The notes below the pieces were generated by a model. It made no database searches. It had not been told where the DNA came from and saw only the letters and a list, made by a program, of their open reading frames with translations. A DNA stretch of 64,000 nt from Escherichia coli (lineage in GTDB: Bacteria; Pseudomonadota; Gammaproteobacteria; Enterobacterales; Enterobacteriaceae): NCBI RefSeq assembly GCF_003334405.1, contig NZ_QOWM01000004.1; one strand, 5' to 3'. The position numbers and the translations under genes are program-made. Each line of letters starts with the position of its first letter. Position 1 is the stretch's first letter. Shown piece after piece: positions 14,444 through 51,928 of the stretch.

Positions 14444-15508
14444 ATGGTAACGTCCTGTACTGGACATGTTTTAGATAATCAACGCGCCACCACTCGCGGA
14501 GTTTTCTCCTCCGGTAGTCATCTCGTCACTTTGCATTTTCAACCTCATCCTTTCTTTTCATGTGTTACCGACGCCGTAAACGGTGCGCGTAGCCGTTTTT
14601 CGGCATTTTATCCAAAAGCAAACTATGGCTTACAAGGAAGCCAACCCTCTGATGTTCGTGCGCATAATCGCGCTGCCAACGGCGCGTGTGATGAATACAA
14701 ACAACTCAAGGTGCTCTCCATGGGAAGACAAAAAGCAGTGATCAAAGCTCGTCGCGAGGCAAAACGTGTGCTGAGACGGGATTCGCGCAGCCATAAGCAG
14801 CGTGAAGAAGAATCGGTCACCTCGCTTGTGCAGATGGGCGGCGTAGAAGCCATTGGTATGGCCCGCGACAGTCGCGATACTTCGCCCATCCTCGCGCGAA
14901 ATGAAGCGCAATTGCACTATCTGAAGGCTATTGAGAGTAAGCAGCTGATATTCGCCACGGGCGAAGCCGGGTGCGGAAAAACCTGGATCAGCGCAGCAAA
15001 AGCGGCAGAGGCCCTGATACATAAGGATGTCGACAGGATTATCGTCACCCGTCCAGTTCTGCAAGCCGATGAAGATCTTGGCTTCTTACCTGGAGATATC
15101 GCAGAAAAGTTTGCTCCCTATTTTCGCCCGGTCTACGACGTGCTGGTCCGGCGCTTAGGGGCTTCCTTTATGCAGTACTGCCTGCGACCGGAAATAGGGA
15201 AGGTGGAAATTGCGCCGTTCGCCTATATGCGTGGACGTACCTTTGAAAATGCAGTCGTCATTCTTGACGAGGCGCAGAATGTGACTGCCGCGCAAATGAA
15301 AATGTTTTTAACCCGCCTCGGGGAGAACGTGACGGTTATCGTCAACGGTGATATCACGCAATGCGATTTGCCTCGCGGCGTGTGCTCCGGATTAAGTGAC
15401 GCGCTGGAACGTTTCGAAGAAGATGAAATGGTTGGGATCGTCCGGTTCGGTAAAGAGGACTGCGTACGTTCGGCACTTTGCCAACGTACGCTGCATGCCT
15501 ACAGTTAA
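14444..15508 (+). CDS. phoH: PhoH, phosphate-starvation-inducible ATPase (PhoH-like)
   Basis: ORF track 354 aa with Walker A GEAGCGKT. Confidence 0.93.
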   Translation: MVTSCTGHVLDNQRATTRGVFSSGSHLVTLHFQPHPFFSCVTDAVNGARSRFSAFYPKANYGLQGSQPSDVRAHNRAANGACDEYKQLKVLSMGRQKAVIKARREAKRVLRRDSRSHKQREEESVTSLVQMGGVEAIGMARDSRDTSPILARNEAQLHYLKAIESKQLIFATGEAGCGKTWISAAKAAEALIHKDVDRIIVTRPVLQADEDLGFLPGDIAEKFAPYFRPVYDVLVRRLGASFMQYCLRPEIGKVEIAPFAYMRGRTFENAVVILDEAQNVTAAQMKMFLTRLGENVTVIVNGDITQCDLPRGVCSGLSDALERFEEDEMVGIVRFGKEDCVRSALCQRTLHAYS

Positions 15509-26281: not shown

Positions 26282-26413
26282 GGAAGTGATAGGAAGTGAC
26301 CAGATAATACATATATGTTCTGTACTCTCTTGCGCATTTTGATTGTTGACTGAGTAACCAGACAGTTGATGTGCACGATTTCCCCTCGCCCTAACAGACG
26401 TGGGCGGGGGCAC

Positions 26414-26835
26414 CCGGTGTGTGCAATATACGAAAAAAAAGCCCGTACTTTCGTACGAGCTCTTCTTTAAATATGGCGGTGAGGGGGGGATTGACTCGCT
26501 TCGCTCGCCCTGCGGGCAGCCCGCTCACTGCGTTCACGGTCTGTCCAACTGGCTGTCGCCAGTTGTCGAACCCCGGTCGGGGCTTCTCATCCCCCCGGTG
26601 TGTGCAATATACGAAAAAAAAGCCCGTACTTTCGTACGAGCTCTTCTTTAAATATGGCGGTGAGGGGGGGATTGACTCGCTTCGCTCGCCCTGCGGGCAG
26701 CCCGCTCACTGCGTTCACGGTCTGTCCAACTGGCTGTCGCCAGTTGTCGAACCCCGGTCGGGGCTTCTCATCCCCCCGGTGTGTGCAATATACGAAAAAA
26801 AAGCCCGTACTTTCGTACGAGCTCTTCTTTAAATA
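26414..26835. repeat. Tandem direct repeat, 181-bp unit x ~2.3, each unit carrying a copy of the serX 3' end and its terminator
   Basis: Identical ORF-track fragments begin at 26419, 26600 and 26781 (period 181); sequence ccggtgtgtgcaatatacgaaaaaaaagcccgtactttcgtacgagctcttctttaaatatggcggtgaggggggatt... repeats exactly. Confidence 0.92.
26781..26835 (-). terminator. serX rho-independent terminator (copies recur in each repeat unit)
   Basis: Reverse strand immediately after tRNA CCA: GAGCTCGTACGAAAGTACGGGC hairpin followed by TTTTTTTT. Confidence 0.75.
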
Positions 26836-26923
26836 TGGCGGTGAGGGGGGGATTCGAACCCCCGATACGTTGCCGTATACACACTTTCCAGGCGTGCTCC
26901 TTCAGCCACTCGGACACCTCACC
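26836..26923 (-). tRNA. serX: tRNA-Ser (GGA anticodon), 88 nt with long variable arm and encoded CCA
   Basis: Reverse strand reads GGTGAGGTGTCCGAGTGGCTGAAGGAGCACGCCTGGAAAGTGTGTATACGGCAACGTATCGGGGGTTCGAATCCCCCCCTCACCGCCA. Confidence 0.95.
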
Positions 26924-29465: not shown

Positions 29466-29566
29466 GTGTGATCTACGTCACTCATAACTGCAACGGATAA
29501 TTTGTTGTTGCATAAAATGTGTGCTCGATCTCATTCATGGCCGCGTTTTCTGCTATCATGCGCGGC

Positions 29567-30121: not shown

Positions 30122-30955
30122 TCAGGATTCCGGTGGAACCGACATATGGCGGTATTTCACCAGAATGTCATTCTGCCGTTCTGCTTTATTTTGCAAATCC
30201 CACAGACCACGGTCGATACCATCATTAATCAGGAAAATGACCCCTGTTTCGATAGCCGACATCAGGCACAGCATAACAGGTTCGTTCGAGGTGTAACCCA
30301 CTTCCCCTTCAAGCAAGCGCTGGTAGTCAATAAAGCGGAAAACCCCGGCCTGAACTTCATAGGAAAGTATCGTCTTACTGGTGTTCACCGAAGAAAGGAT
30401 CTCGCCGGTACTCACATTGACGACGCGCAGGTTCACGGCAATCTGATCGAGCTGGTATTGCGTGTCGGCACCGATGCCAAAATATCTTGCCCCAACCCCG
30501 CCAGATTTGACGTTGCTTTCATAACCGATAATCGAACCTTCAACCATGATATTTGCCGCCGTTAAAGATTGCAGCGGGATTCGGTTATTAATGGCAACCG
30601 TGCCGTTTTCTTGTGCCGCACGAATAATCTTGCGCTCGTTAAGCAGGTTTTGTAAGCCCTGGCGCTCCAGCGGTATAAACCAGCGAGAATCTTTCAGTGC
30701 CGTGACCAGCATTGCCGTGGCGCTTTGCGGAACAGCAGTGGAGAAGTTACTTGCCGGGTAGGGTTTAAATTGCCCGGTTTCGTCCTGAATGTTGTATACC
30801 GAAACAAAGATTTTACCCGTCGGCGCTGGCAGATGGGTCAAATCTTTGTAGCTCTGAGCACGAGGCATTAATGTCGGTCTGGCGGCTTCTTTAGGCGGGG
30901 CGGTTAAGCATCCGCTCAGTAACATGACGGCAACCAAAAGAAATAAGCGCTGCAT
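30122..30955 (-). CDS. csgG: CsgG, curli secretion outer-membrane lipoprotein channel
   Basis: ORF track 277 aa MQRLFLLVAVMLLSGCLTAPPKEA. Confidence 0.97.
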   Translation of the reverse strand: MQRLFLLVAVMLLSGCLTAPPKEAARPTLMPRAQSYKDLTHLPAPTGKIFVSVYNIQDETGQFKPYPASNFSTAVPQSATAMLVTALKDSRWFIPLERQGLQNLLNERKIIRAAQENGTVAINNRIPLQSLTAANIMVEGSIIGYESNVKSGGVGARYFGIGADTQYQLDQIAVNLRVVNVSTGEILSSVNTSKTILSYEVQAGVFRFIDYQRLLEGEVGYTSNEPVMLCLMSAIETGVIFLINDGIDRGLWDLQNKAERQNDILVKYRHMSVPPES

Positions 30956-30981
30956 GATTATTTTCCTTATGAAGCTGGGGC

Positions 30982-31398
30982 TTAAAAATCGGTTGAGTTA
31001 TTTTGTAAACCCGAAACCTGGATGGTCGAGGTTTGTCCGGTTTTACGATCTGTCACGTTCAACTGCAATTGACCATCGCGGTTGGCAATATCGACAATAT
31101 AATCGTTGGTCACCATGCGGCCCGGTTTACCGGTATTAATATTCGACAGTAGCCCACCTAAAATTTGTGACTGGATGGCCTGAGTAAAGTTATCTAACGC
31201 TGAGGGTGTTTCAATACCAAAGTCATCGTTATAGCTCGGATCTTTATAAGAGTTTTGGGCCTGAGCGCTATTTAATAAAAAAGCGCCATTATTTGGGTTA
31301 CCACCAAAGTTTGGATTACGGAACTGGAAAGTCATGGTTCCAGCCCAACTTAATGGCGAAATAAGCATGAGTAGAACTACTGCATGTTTGACACGCAT
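30982..31398 (-). CDS. csgF: CsgF, curli assembly/nucleation accessory protein
   Basis: ORF track 138 aa [33 protein letters not shown]. Confidence 0.96.
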
Positions 31399-31422
31399 TG
31401 CAGCCTCCGAACAATTTTTTAT

Positions 31423-31812
31423 TTAGAATTCATCATGCGCCAAATCGCCCGTACTTAATAACGCCTGATTTATCTGGCGACGATTTAGTGCTTCTTCAGT
31501 TTGAATCAGTGCAAAGACGACAGTTTTCTCGAAGTCTCTTTTCAACGGAAATAAAAAAGTCTGGAAAATAACGTCCTGATTGACCGTTATAGTGATCCAG
31601 CTTCCCCATCGTGCACTGGGCCTTTCATTAATCGTTAAGTTACCCGTATAGTCACTTTCCCATTTATCACTAAAGGCTCGGTAAAAATCATGGCCAATAG
31701 ATGAAACAGTATGGTCAGTTAGCAATCCCGGGACTTCTACCTCAACGGCGTGAAGATTCCCTGCGGCGAACAGAAATTCTGCCGCCACAATCCAGCGTAA
31801 ATAACGTTTCAT
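31423..31812 (-). CDS. csgE: CsgE, curli secretion specificity factor
   Basis: ORF track 129 aa [31 protein letters not shown]. Confidence 0.96.
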
Positions 31813-31816
31813 GGCT

Positions 31817-32467
<651 letters not shown>

Positions 32468-33221
32468 GATGAAACCCCGCTTTTTTTATTGATCGCACAC
32501 CTGACAGCTGCCTCTAAAATAGAAGCACCAGAAGTACTGACAGATGTTGCACTGCTGTGTGTAGTAATAAATCAGCCCTAAATGGGTAAAATATAAAACT
32601 AATGGATTACATCTGATTTCAATCTAGCCATTACAAATCTTAAATCAAGTGTTAAACATGTAACTAAATGTAACTCGTTATATTAAAATGTTAACCTTAA
32701 GGTTTTGTTAAGTTTAGAAATGATAGAAAAGTTGTACATTTGGTTTTTATTGCACAATTTTAAAAAATCATACAAATGGTGATAACTTACTAATAATGCA
32801 TATAAAAAATATTTCGGTGTAGTCCTTTCGTCATGTAAAACGTTCTTGTTTTTTCTCCACACCTCCGTGGACAATTTTTTACTGCAAAAAGACGAGGTTT
32901 GTCACGGCTTGTGCGCAAGACATATCGCAGCAATCAGCGACGGGCAAGAAGAATGACTGTCTGGTGCTTTTTGATAGCGGAAAGCGGAGATTTAAAAGAA
33001 AACAAAATATTTTTTTGCGTAGATAACAGCGTATTTACGTGGGTTTTAATACTTTGGTATGAACTAAAAAAGAAAAATACAACGCGCGGGTGAGTTATTA
33101 AAAATATTTCCGCAGACATACTTTCCATCGTAACGCAGCGTTAACAAAATACAGGTTGCGTTAACAACCAAGTTGAAATGATTTAATTTCTTAAATGTAC
33201 GACCAGGTCCAGGGTGACAAC
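32468..33221. promoter_or_regulatory. csgD-csgB divergent intergenic regulatory region (csgDEFG and csgBAC promoters)
   Basis: 754-bp AT-rich non-coding region between divergently transcribed csgD and csgB; only short spurious ORFs. Confidence 0.8.
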
Positions 33222-33677
33222 ATGAAAAACAAATTGTTATTTATGATGTTAACAATACTGGGTGCGCCTGGGATTGCAGCCGCAGCAGGTTATGATTTAG
33301 CTAATTCAGAATATAACTTCGCGGTAAATGAATTGAGTAAGTCTTCATTTAATCAGGCAGCCATAATTGGTCAAGCTGGGACTAATAATAGTGCTCAGTT
33401 ACGGCAGGGAGGCTCAAAACTTTTGGCGGTTGTTGCGCAAGAAGGTAGTAGCAACCGGGCAAAGATTGACCAGACAGGAGATTATAACCTTGCATATATT
33501 GATCAGGCGGGCAGTGCCAACGATGCCAGTATTTCGCAAGGTGCTTATGGTAATACTGCGATGATTATCCAGAAAGGTTCTGGTAATAAAGCAAATATTA
33601 CACAGTATGGTACTCAAAAAACGGCAATTGTAGTGCAGAGACAGTCGCAAATGGCTATTCGCGTGACACAACGTTAA
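33222..33677 (+). CDS. csgB: CsgB, curli minor subunit / nucleator
   Basis: ORF track 33195..33677; start trimmed to MKNKLLFMMLTILGAPGIAAA (151 aa); Q/N-rich repeats. Confidence 0.96.
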   Translation: MKNKLLFMMLTILGAPGIAAAAGYDLANSEYNFAVNELSKSSFNQAAIIGQAGTNNSAQLRQGGSKLLAVVAQEGSSNRAKIDQTGDYNLAYIDQAGSANDASISQGAYGNTAMIIQKGSGNKANITQYGTQKTAIVVQRQSQMAIRVTQR

Positions 33678-33717
33678 TTTCCATTCGACTTTTAAATCAA
33701 TCCGATGGGGGTTTTAC

Positions 33718-34173
33718 ATGAAACTTTTAAAAGTAGCAGCAATTGCAGCAATCGTATTCTCCGGTAGCGCTCTGGCAGGTGTTGTTCCTCAGTACGGCGG
33801 CGGCGGTAACCACGGTGGTGGCGGTAATAATAGCGGCCCAAATTCTGAGCTGAACATTTACCAGTACGGTGGCGGTAACTCTGCACTTGCTCTGCAAACT
33901 GATGCCCGTAACTCTGACTTGACTATTACCCAGCATGGCGGCGGTAATGGTGCAGATGTTGGTCAGGGCTCAGATGACAGCTCAATCGATCTGACCCAAC
34001 GTGGCTTCGGTAACAGCGCTACTCTTGATCAGTGGAACGGCAAAAATTCTGAAATGACGGTTAAACAGTTCGGTGGTGGCAACGGTGCTGCAGTTGACCA
34101 GACTGCATCTAACTCCTCCGTCAACGTGACTCAGGTTGGCTTTGGTAACAACGCGACCGCTCATCAGTACTAA
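33718..34173 (+). CDS. csgA: CsgA, curli major subunit (amyloid, five imperfect repeats)
   Basis: ORF track 151 aa MKLLKVAAIAAIVFSGSALAGVVPQYGGGGNHGGGGNNSGPNSELNIYQYGGGNSALALQ. Confidence 0.97.
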   Translation: MKLLKVAAIAAIVFSGSALAGVVPQYGGGGNHGGGGNNSGPNSELNIYQYGGGNSALALQTDARNSDLTITQHGGGNGADVGQGSDDSSIDLTQRGFGNSATLDQWNGKNSEMTVKQFGGGNGAAVDQTASNSSVNVTQVGFGNNATAHQY

Positions 34174-34192
34174 TACATCATTTGTATTACAG

Positions 34193-34220
34193 AAACAGGG
34201 CGCAAGCCCTGTTTTTTTTC
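34193..34220 (+). terminator. Rho-independent terminator after csgA
   Basis: aacagggcgcaagccctgtt hairpin followed by T8. Confidence 0.75.
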
Positions 34221-34231
34221 GGGAGAAGAAT

Positions 34232-34996
<765 letters not shown>

Positions 34997-35090: not shown

Positions 35091-35624
35091 ATGAAAACGC
35101 GTATTCATGTTGTGCAGGGTGATATTACCAAACTGGCCGTTGATGTGATTGTGAATGCGGCTAATCCGTCATTAATGGGAGGCGGCGGCGTCGATGGGGC
35201 CATTCATCGCGCAGCGGGTCCGGCCCTGCTGGATGCTTGTTTAAAAGTCAGGCAACAGCAGGGCGATTGCCCTACGGGGCATGCCGTTATTACGCTTGCA
35301 GGCGATCTTCCCGCTAAAGCCGTAGTGCACACCGTCGGGCCAGTCTGGCGTGGTGGTGAACAAAACGAAGACCAGCTTTTGCAGGATGCCTATCTCAATA
35401 GCCTACGACTGGTGGCGGCAAACAGCTATACGTCAGTGGCTTTTCCTGCAATCAGTACTGGGGTTTATGGTTACCCTCGTGCGGCAGCGGCTGAAATCGC
35501 AGTAAAAACCGTTTCAGAATTTATTACCCGTCACGCTTTACCCGAACAGGTATACTTTGTCTGTTATGATGAAGAAAACGCCCACCTCTACGAAAGACTC
35601 CTTACCCAACAAGGAGATGAATGA
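35091..35624 (+). CDS. ymdB: YmdB, macrodomain O-acetyl-ADP-ribose deacetylase / RNase III regulator
   Basis: ORF track 177 aa [43 protein letters not shown] (macro domain). Confidence 0.95.
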
Positions 35625-42685: not shown

Positions 42686-42786
42686 TTGCCTGATGCGCTA
42701 CGCTTATCAGGCCTACATCGTTCCTGCAATTTATTGATTTTGCAAGACTTTGTGGGTCGGATAAGGCGTTCACGCCGCATCCGGCA
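42686..42786. repeat. REP elements (two units) downstream of opgH
   Basis: gcctgatgcgctacgcttatcaggcctaca and ggtcggataaggcgttcacgccgcatccggcaa. Confidence 0.75.
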
Positions 42787-51879: not shown

Positions 51880-51928
51880 TAATCTCTATGCTCCGGCTGA
51901 AGGGATGTTTTTGCCGGACACAAAGGAT

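Follow-up and report, generated by a model that had tools for sequence, protein, structure and literature searches.

The 64,000-nucleotide stretch of Escherichia coli DNA analysed here (the window) carries the curli genes in two divergent groups. On the plus strand lie csgB (33222..33677), encoding the 151-aa minor (nucleator) subunit of curli, csgA (33718..34173), encoding the major subunit, and csgC (34232..34564), encoding the 110-aa curli assembly chaperone. On the minus strand, the csgDEFG operon (30122..32467) comprises csgG (30122-30955), csgF (30982-31398), csgE (31423-31812) and csgD (31817-32467). The csgA open reading frame runs from ATG to TAA, 151 codons plus the stop, and its translation is MKLLKVAAIAAIVFSGSALAGVVPQYGGGGNHGGGGNNSGPNSELNIYQYGGGNSALALQTDARNSDLTITQHGGGNGADVGQGSDDSSIDLTQRGFGNSATLDQWNGKNSEMTVKQFGGGNGAAVDQTASNSSVNVTQVGFGNNATAHQY.

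Integrity of the csg locus

All seven csg coding sequences are free of frameshifts and internal stops. Those of csgB, csgC and the four genes of the csgDEFG operon match the annotated reference with 0 nucleotide differences, and each of csgD, csgE, csgF and csgG begins with ATG, ends in a stop codon and is uninterrupted by stops. The csgA sequence is identical, in nucleotides and in amino acids, to the gene annotated in NZ_CP030240.1 (WP_000771437.1, 'curli major subunit CsgA'), and neither a frameshift, nor a premature stop, nor a missing repeat was found in 33718-34173. The order and orientation of csgB-csgA-csgC and of the divergent csgDEFG operon are those of the RefSeq annotation, and CsgC scores 171.6 bits on NF007507 (cut-off 75). 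By megablast, the csgB-csgC stretch (33195-34564) is present in 5386 of 5426 complete E. coli genomes, many of the matches being 100% identical and annotated as csgB, csgA and csgC; with csgA alone as the query, the gene was found in 5383 of 5426 E. coli genomes. The csg locus of the window contains no insertion sequence, unlike that of several E. coli genomes retrieved with the csgB-csgC stretch. A first-pass annotation of this DNA had taken the repeats of csgA as confirmation of an intact curli structural operon. The repeats alone cannot provide this, but the separate comparison of coding sequences shows that csgB, csgA and csgC are indeed intact.

Other features of the window were noted alongside the csg genes. 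The list of open reading frames starts csgB, clsC and ycdZ upstream of their RefSeq starts (33222, 35566 and 29567), adding 33195-33221, 35557-35565 and 29519-29566, respectively, and the ymdB and clsC genes share 59 nt (35566-35624). At 26413-26854, directly downstream of tRNA-Ser(GGA) (26836-26923, minus strand), a 181-nt unit is repeated in perfect tandem (2.4 copies, 100% matches), and two Rfam RtT matches (46.3 bits, gathering score 45) lie inside this array. Over a 24-kb stretch that includes it, some genomes that are identical in other respects match in two pieces and are exactly 181 nt shorter, which suggests copy-number variation of this tandem repeat. Elsewhere, all on the minus strand, Rfam models match at 15310-15503 (Ysr251, Yersinia antisense sRNA 251, full length, 189.1 bits, gathering score 100), at 42709-42751 (ES036, CssrF sRNA, 47.9 bits) and at 51880-51929 (PyrC leader, 68.7 bits), the last two being ordinary E. 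coli features.

Intergenic regions and the expression of curli

The 58-nt spacer between csgA and csgC folds into an intrinsic-terminator-like hairpin with a T-run (34192..34219, plus strand), in which a 10-bp stem (GAAACAGGGC/GCCCUGUUUU) closes a GCAA loop and is followed by eight T. The minimum free energy of the spacer is -20 kcal/mol (z = -5.7), and 0 of 200 shuffled sequences fold as well. This hairpin implies limited read-through into csgC. A consensus terminator scan of 32400-34700 missed the hairpin at 34192-34219, though it apparently conforms to the stated criteria of the scan, and a promoter consensus scan of the same interval returned promoter-like sites at or below the expectation from shuffles.

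The regulatory region between csgD and csgB spans 754 nt (32468..33221) and differs from that of the reference strain ER1709 by two SNPs and one extra T in the T-run at 32475-32481. This T-run lies just upstream of the csgD start and comprises 7 T in the window and 6 T in ER1709, a K-12-sized strain; on the minus strand it reads as an A-run ahead of the ribosome-binding region. The Rfam model of the sRNA ES056 matches the csgD leader at 32523-32614 on the minus strand (119.7 bits, gathering score 43), and the match probably represents the csgD 5' untranslated region and not an independent gene.

Many laboratory strains express curli in a manner that depends on temperature and on RpoS. The csg genes could be intact, yet curli not be made under ordinary conditions, through an rpoS defect, temperature restriction or the state of the csgD promoter, and we give this possibility a minor, if appreciable, chance. 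Such regulation would qualify the reading of csgA as an ordinary intact gene and does not exclude it, an 'intact operon' then being something other than a curli-positive phenotype. The window attests to coding integrity only, three positions between csgD and csgB depart from one reference, and the regulators of this region lie outside the region examined, all of which leave room for a regulatory block; set against these points, the 80-nt stretch of the csgD leader around the T-run is in its majority state, the form seen in the window being at least 99% identical in 4583 of 5343 E. coli genomes, and the region is without insertion sequences.

Architecture of CsgA

The CsgA protein begins with a predicted Sec signal peptide, MKLLKVAAIAAIVFSGSALA (aa 1-20, 33718..33777, plus strand), recognised by eye from its basic N-terminus, its hydrophobic core and the A-L-A sequence ahead of G21. 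The published signal peptide of CsgA is likewise its first 20 residues (PMC11414021), and the alignment to the mature chain of PDB 8ENQ begins at G21. It is followed by the N22 segment, GVVPQYGGGGNHGGGGNNSGPN (aa 21-42, 33778..33843, plus strand), which lies outside the amyloid core, has a published role in secretion targeting (PMC7217966) and corresponds to the entire 22-residue CsgA peptide chain 6l7c_S (E = 2.5e-6). N22 contains two 18-nt half-repeats that code for GGGGN (33792-33827), and is the only site at which csgA alleles differ in length: some have one extra Gly codon there, and the resulting 152-aa alleles include that of O157:H7.

Beyond N22, the first-pass annotation had described five units of the form S-x5-Q-x-G-x-G-N-x-A-x3-Q in the translation. 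Written as the regular expression S.{5}Q.G.GN.A.{3}Q, the motif has exactly five matches in CsgA, and both example strings quoted in that annotation occur verbatim in the protein. CsgA is described in the literature as having five imperfect repeats of 19-23 residues with the consensus Ser-X5-Gln-X4-Asn-X5-Gln (PMC11414021, PMC7217966), of which this motif is a stricter version. The matches, all on the plus strand, are SELNIYQYGGGNSALALQ (aa 43-60, nt 33844-33897), SDLTITQHGGGNGADVGQ (aa 66-83, nt 33913-33966), SSIDLTQRGFGNSATLDQ (aa 88-105, nt 33979-34032), SEMTVKQFGGGNGAAVDQ (aa 111-128, nt 34048-34101) and SSVNVTQVGFGNNATAHQ (aa 133-150, nt 34114-34167); their starts at aa 43, 66, 88, 111 and 133 are spaced by 23, 22, 23 and 22 residues. 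No other match to the strict motif occurs in any of the six reading frames of the 64-kb window.

The complete repeat units, each with one match to the Pfam family Curlin_rpt (PF07012), also lie on the plus strand. R1 is SELNIYQYGGGNSALALQTDARN (aa 43-65, 33844..33912; Curlin_rpt match 40-74), R2 is SDLTITQHGGGNGADVGQGSDD (aa 66-87, 33913..33978; match 65-83, E = 0.0054), R3 is SSIDLTQRGFGNSATLDQWNGKN (aa 88-110, 33979..34047; match 86-119), R4 is SEMTVKQFGGGNGAAVDQTASN (aa 111-132, 34048..34113; match 114-141) and the C-terminal R5 is SSVNVTQVGFGNNATAHQY (aa 133-151, 34114..34170; match 132-151, E = 0.005). The unit lengths of 23, 22, 23, 22 and 19 aa lie within the published range of 19-23 residues for the five repeats. 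The coordinates 33718-34173 that had been attached to the repeats are thus right for the csgA open reading frame but describe the whole coding sequence with its stop, the repeats themselves being confined to 33844-34170. The core has 18 columns, seven of them invariant (S1, Q7, G9, G11, N12, A14 and Q18), the pairwise amino acid identity of the cores is 44-61%, and GGG and GFG turns alternate from R2 on. The closest resemblance is that of R2 to R4 and of R3 to R5 (61% in amino acids, 67% in nucleotides).

The PDB entries 8ENQ and 8ENR ('Major curlin subunit') align to residues 21-151 of CsgA, with 129 of 131 mature residues identical and the engineered changes A63C and V140C as the only differences from the window protein. 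At its C-terminus the deposited chain has 6 additional residues, which fits the C-terminal 6xHis tag mentioned in PMC11005368. This cryo-EM fibril model has a beta-helical architecture with a strand spacing of 4.8 A and a helix height of 19.1 A, and its authors state that the map leaves detailed inter-subunit interactions to higher-resolution structures (PMC11005368). Each CsgA repeat is described as a beta-hairpin, the hairpins stacking into a compact amyloid unit (PMC11414021). The assignment of the five units as the amyloid-core repeats R1-R5 of curli, made in the first-pass annotation, is supported by the Curlin_rpt matches, by 8ENQ/8ENR and by the published consensus.

The Gln and Asn residues of the Q-X4-N-X5-Q pattern drive polymerisation, and Asp and Gly residues of R2-R4 are gatekeepers that slow nucleation (PMC9900396); those named are D91, D104, G123 and D127 (PMC7217966). 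All four are present in the window protein, D91 and D104 in R3 and G123 and D127 in R4. R2 has G78, D80 and G82, as read from the sequence, which are reportedly gatekeepers (Wang et al. 2010). A single-sequence AlphaFold2 model of CsgA is of low confidence (mean pLDDT 58.5) and predicts strands at 44-50, 67-73, 89-95, 112-118 and 134-140, each beginning one residue past the Ser of its repeat; this predicted register may be read as weak corroboration of the repeat fold, which such a model would not suffice to establish by itself.

The repeats at the DNA level

The repeats had been called visible at sequence level and had been offered as the explanation of periodicity in this stretch. They are visible in the translation, and the periodicity of the protein is explained by them, but in the DNA they appear only weakly, with a signal that comes wholly from amino acid constraint. 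Tandem Repeats Finder, applied to 33100-34300 with a minimum score of 30, reported no tandem repeat. A DNA repeat search recovered a 51-nt family of 67-73% identity that links R1, R2 and R4 together with short families of Gly codons, the partial families having 67-78% identity overall. Between the 54-nt repeat cores, nucleotide identity ranges from 39 to 67% and averages 55%. The best nucleotide lag is 135 nt, at which 45.9% of positions match, a significant excess over codon shuffles, in which the mean of maxima is 34.7% and the highest value 40.8%; matches at this lag amount to 49%, 53% and 36% at codon positions 1, 2 and 3, respectively.

Where the same amino acid occupies the same column in different repeats, it is encoded by the same codon in 40 of 90 cases, and synonymous reassignment within the gene gives 42.1 +/- 4.3. 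Codon sharing is thus at random expectation, and constraint on the protein accounts in full for the periodicity of the DNA. This comparison reveals no codon bias towards identity between repeats, as would follow from recent duplication or conversion, and none against identity, as would follow from avoidance of recombination. No DNA homology between the csgA repeats is left beyond that imposed by the protein.

These results bear on another explanation, in which the units are a tandem duplication of DNA that is either recent or unstable (a VNTR or contingency-locus array), slippage or recombination changing the number of copies. The head-to-tail arrangement of the units would fit such an array, and the resemblance of R2 to R4 and of R3 to R5 suggests that a unit of two repeats was duplicated long ago; the empty Tandem Repeats Finder result, the low nucleotide identity of the cores and the random level of codon sharing nevertheless speak against it, as do the lengths of csgA alleles. 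In a sample of 30 matches spread across the 5383 E. coli genomes, csgA is full-length, at 456 or 459 nt, in 29, the single exception being a match that covers only 29% of the query. The sole length change seen affects a single Gly codon in N22 and not an entire repeat, and no allele with 4 or 6 repeats was seen among these 30 matches. We consider a tandem array at the DNA level highly improbable, refuted as it is by the Tandem Repeats Finder result, core identity, allele lengths and the codon test.

Allelic variation in csgA

Four csgA alleles from other E. coli genomes, 91.5-97.6% identical to the window gene in DNA, were compared with it. Their proteins are 97-99% identical, with no change in any motif column. 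The three that are furthest from the window gene in DNA (91.5-93% identity) differ from it in 22-30 synonymous and 3-4 nonsynonymous codons. CsgA and its repeat sequence are under strong purifying selection. Gain or loss of a repeat was seen in no allele of the 30-match sample, which argues further against a slippage-prone array.

Polymorphism among E. coli genomes was also seen to form a local hot spot at csgA, where it is almost entirely synonymous. With csgA alone as the query, 2111 of 5383 genomes (about 39%) fall in the 90-95% identity band, whereas csgB, csgA and csgC together as the query place only 15 records in that band. Relative to strain 82.0312, csgA is 91.5% identical (8.5% divergence, with 30 synonymous and 3 nonsynonymous codon changes), and the flanking csgG, csgF, csgE, csgD, csgB, csgC, ymdA, ymdB, clsC and csgD-csgB intergenic region are 97.4-99.6% identical (0.4-2.6% divergence). 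Synonymous codon differences from this strain number 2 in the 152 codons of csgB versus 30 in the 151 of csgA. It is conceivable, if rather doubtful, that the hot spot has a specific cause at the level of the repeat-coding DNA or mRNA, such as the import of alleles into csgA alone, allele classes maintained over long periods, or short-patch conversion between the repeats. Alternatively, it may represent the ordinary heterogeneity of synonymous diversity from gene to gene in E. coli. Since E. coli genes differ more than 20-fold in their synonymous diversity (PMC4651231), the csgA hot spot may be ordinary. A literature search on synonymous diversity in csgA found nothing specific to this gene.

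Significance of the repeats and identity of the gene

CsgA is rich in G, N, Q, S and A, and GGGGN motifs also occur in N22, outside the repeats. Both facts might be held to favour the view that the repeats are a by-product of a low-complexity composition rich in Gly, Asn, Gln and Ser, with no true internal repetition. In composition-preserving shuffles of CsgA, by contrast, 19,999 of 20,000 sequences lacked the motif that the protein contains five times, and the remaining one had a single match. The spacing of 23, 22, 23 and 22 aa is regular, and a curated repeat HMM, Curlin_rpt, matches the protein five times (E = 1.3e-10, 2.4e-9, 5e-6, 0.005 and 0.0054). The BLOSUM62 self-similarity of CsgA peaks at a lag of 45 aa with a value of 1.41, above the maximum of 0.51 reached over 2000 shuffles and all lags. 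The lag of 45 surpasses those of 22 and 23 because the unit lengths alternate between 23 and 22, and only the two-unit lag keeps every repeat in register; it is also favoured because R2/R4 and R3/R5 are the most similar pairs. A compositional artefact, refuted by the motif-shuffle and self-similarity-shuffle controls, is in our estimation even less probable than a tandem array.

The identification of the gene as csgA in the first-pass annotation is borne out by DNA identity with the annotated gene, by the Curlin_rpt and 8ENQ/8ENR matches, and by the CsgA equivalog NCBIfam NF007470, on which the open reading frame scores 239.8 bits (cut-off 160) in an alignment that spans residues 1-151 of the protein and positions 1-150 of the 150 in the profile. 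The chance that it is instead the nucleator CsgB or another Curlin_rpt paralogue, an idea that draws on the homologous repeats carried by CsgB, its membership of the same Pfam repeat family and its 30% identity with the open reading frame, is vanishingly small and is refuted by the NCBIfam equivalog scores: the csgA product reaches 33.9 bits on the CsgB equivalog (cut-off 165) against 239.8 on that of CsgA, the upstream open reading frame at 33222-33677 passes the CsgB model itself (NF007506, 270.3 bits, cut-off 165), and the identical sequence is csgA in RefSeq.

Discussion

We conclude, with a probability of about 0.98, that the stretch at 33718-34173 is an ordinary intact E. coli csgA whose product has the five textbook curli amyloid repeats. 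None of the results speaks against this reading. The observation of five repeats in csgA is already fully known, and the repeats offer nothing new. The window is confirmed as a piece of E. coli chromosome with complete, undisrupted csgDEFG and csgBAC, which gives the strain the coding capacity for curli amyloid. Curli is a major component of the biofilm matrix and the CsgA repeats are a textbook model of a functional amyloid, a picture that is unchanged by this analysis. The repeat is a feature of the protein level: it is missed by DNA repeat finders, and synonymous sites between repeats are fully randomised.

The following sequence of events would apply to the CsgA of the window. The protein would be exported by Sec by means of its 20-residue signal peptide and would be held disordered in the periplasm by CsgC (PMC7217966). 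N22 (aa 21-42) would target it to the CsgG outer-membrane channel, with CsgE and CsgF assisting secretion (PMC7217966), and CsgB would nucleate its polymerisation into curli fibres on the cell surface. R1-R5 (aa 43-151) would form the amyloid core as a beta-solenoid, each repeat contributing one strand-turn-strand rung and the five rungs stacking 4.8 A apart, such that the invariant Ser, Gln, Gly, Asn, Ala and Gln columns would line up along the fibril axis. The Asp and Gly gatekeepers of R2-R4 would slow spontaneous nucleation. In this scheme, published work on the identical protein (PMC11414021, PMC7217966, PMC9900396) is the source for how CsgA folds, is secreted and is nucleated and for what the gatekeepers do, and the present analysis contributes the identity of the gene, the repeats and their significance, family membership, the integrity of the seven csg genes and purifying selection.

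Known systems resemble the CsgA of the window to very different degrees. FapC of Pseudomonas is, like CsgA, a secreted subunit whose imperfect repeats build a cross-beta fibril by stacking (PMC12392863, PMC12822426), but it belongs to an unrelated sequence family and to the fap operon, and had no match in any search made here. The protein of PDB 8C50 also carries the Curlin repeat (E = 1.7e-13 over CsgA residues 28-129) and is a distant homologue, not an orthologue; its chain has 363 aa in contrast to the 151 aa of CsgA, from which we infer that it has more than five repeats. CsgB (33222-33677) is closer, with the same Curlin_rpt family and the same Q-x4-N-x5-Q spacing, for which it has six matches. 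BLASTP aligns CsgA and CsgB at 30% identity (E = 1.6e-5), and there is a cross-hit between the equivalog models, yet CsgB falls far below the CsgA equivalog cut-off and does not have the strict S-x5-Q-x-G-x-G-N form, strict and relaxed regular expressions giving 0 matches in csgB. According to the literature it is a membrane-associated nucleator and not the bulk fibre subunit. The CsgA of E. coli K-12 (WP_000771437.1; PDB 8ENQ/8ENR), finally, does not differ from that of the window: the whole coding sequence is identical in DNA and protein, with the same R1-R5, signal peptide and N22 and the same csgBAC/csgDEFG context.
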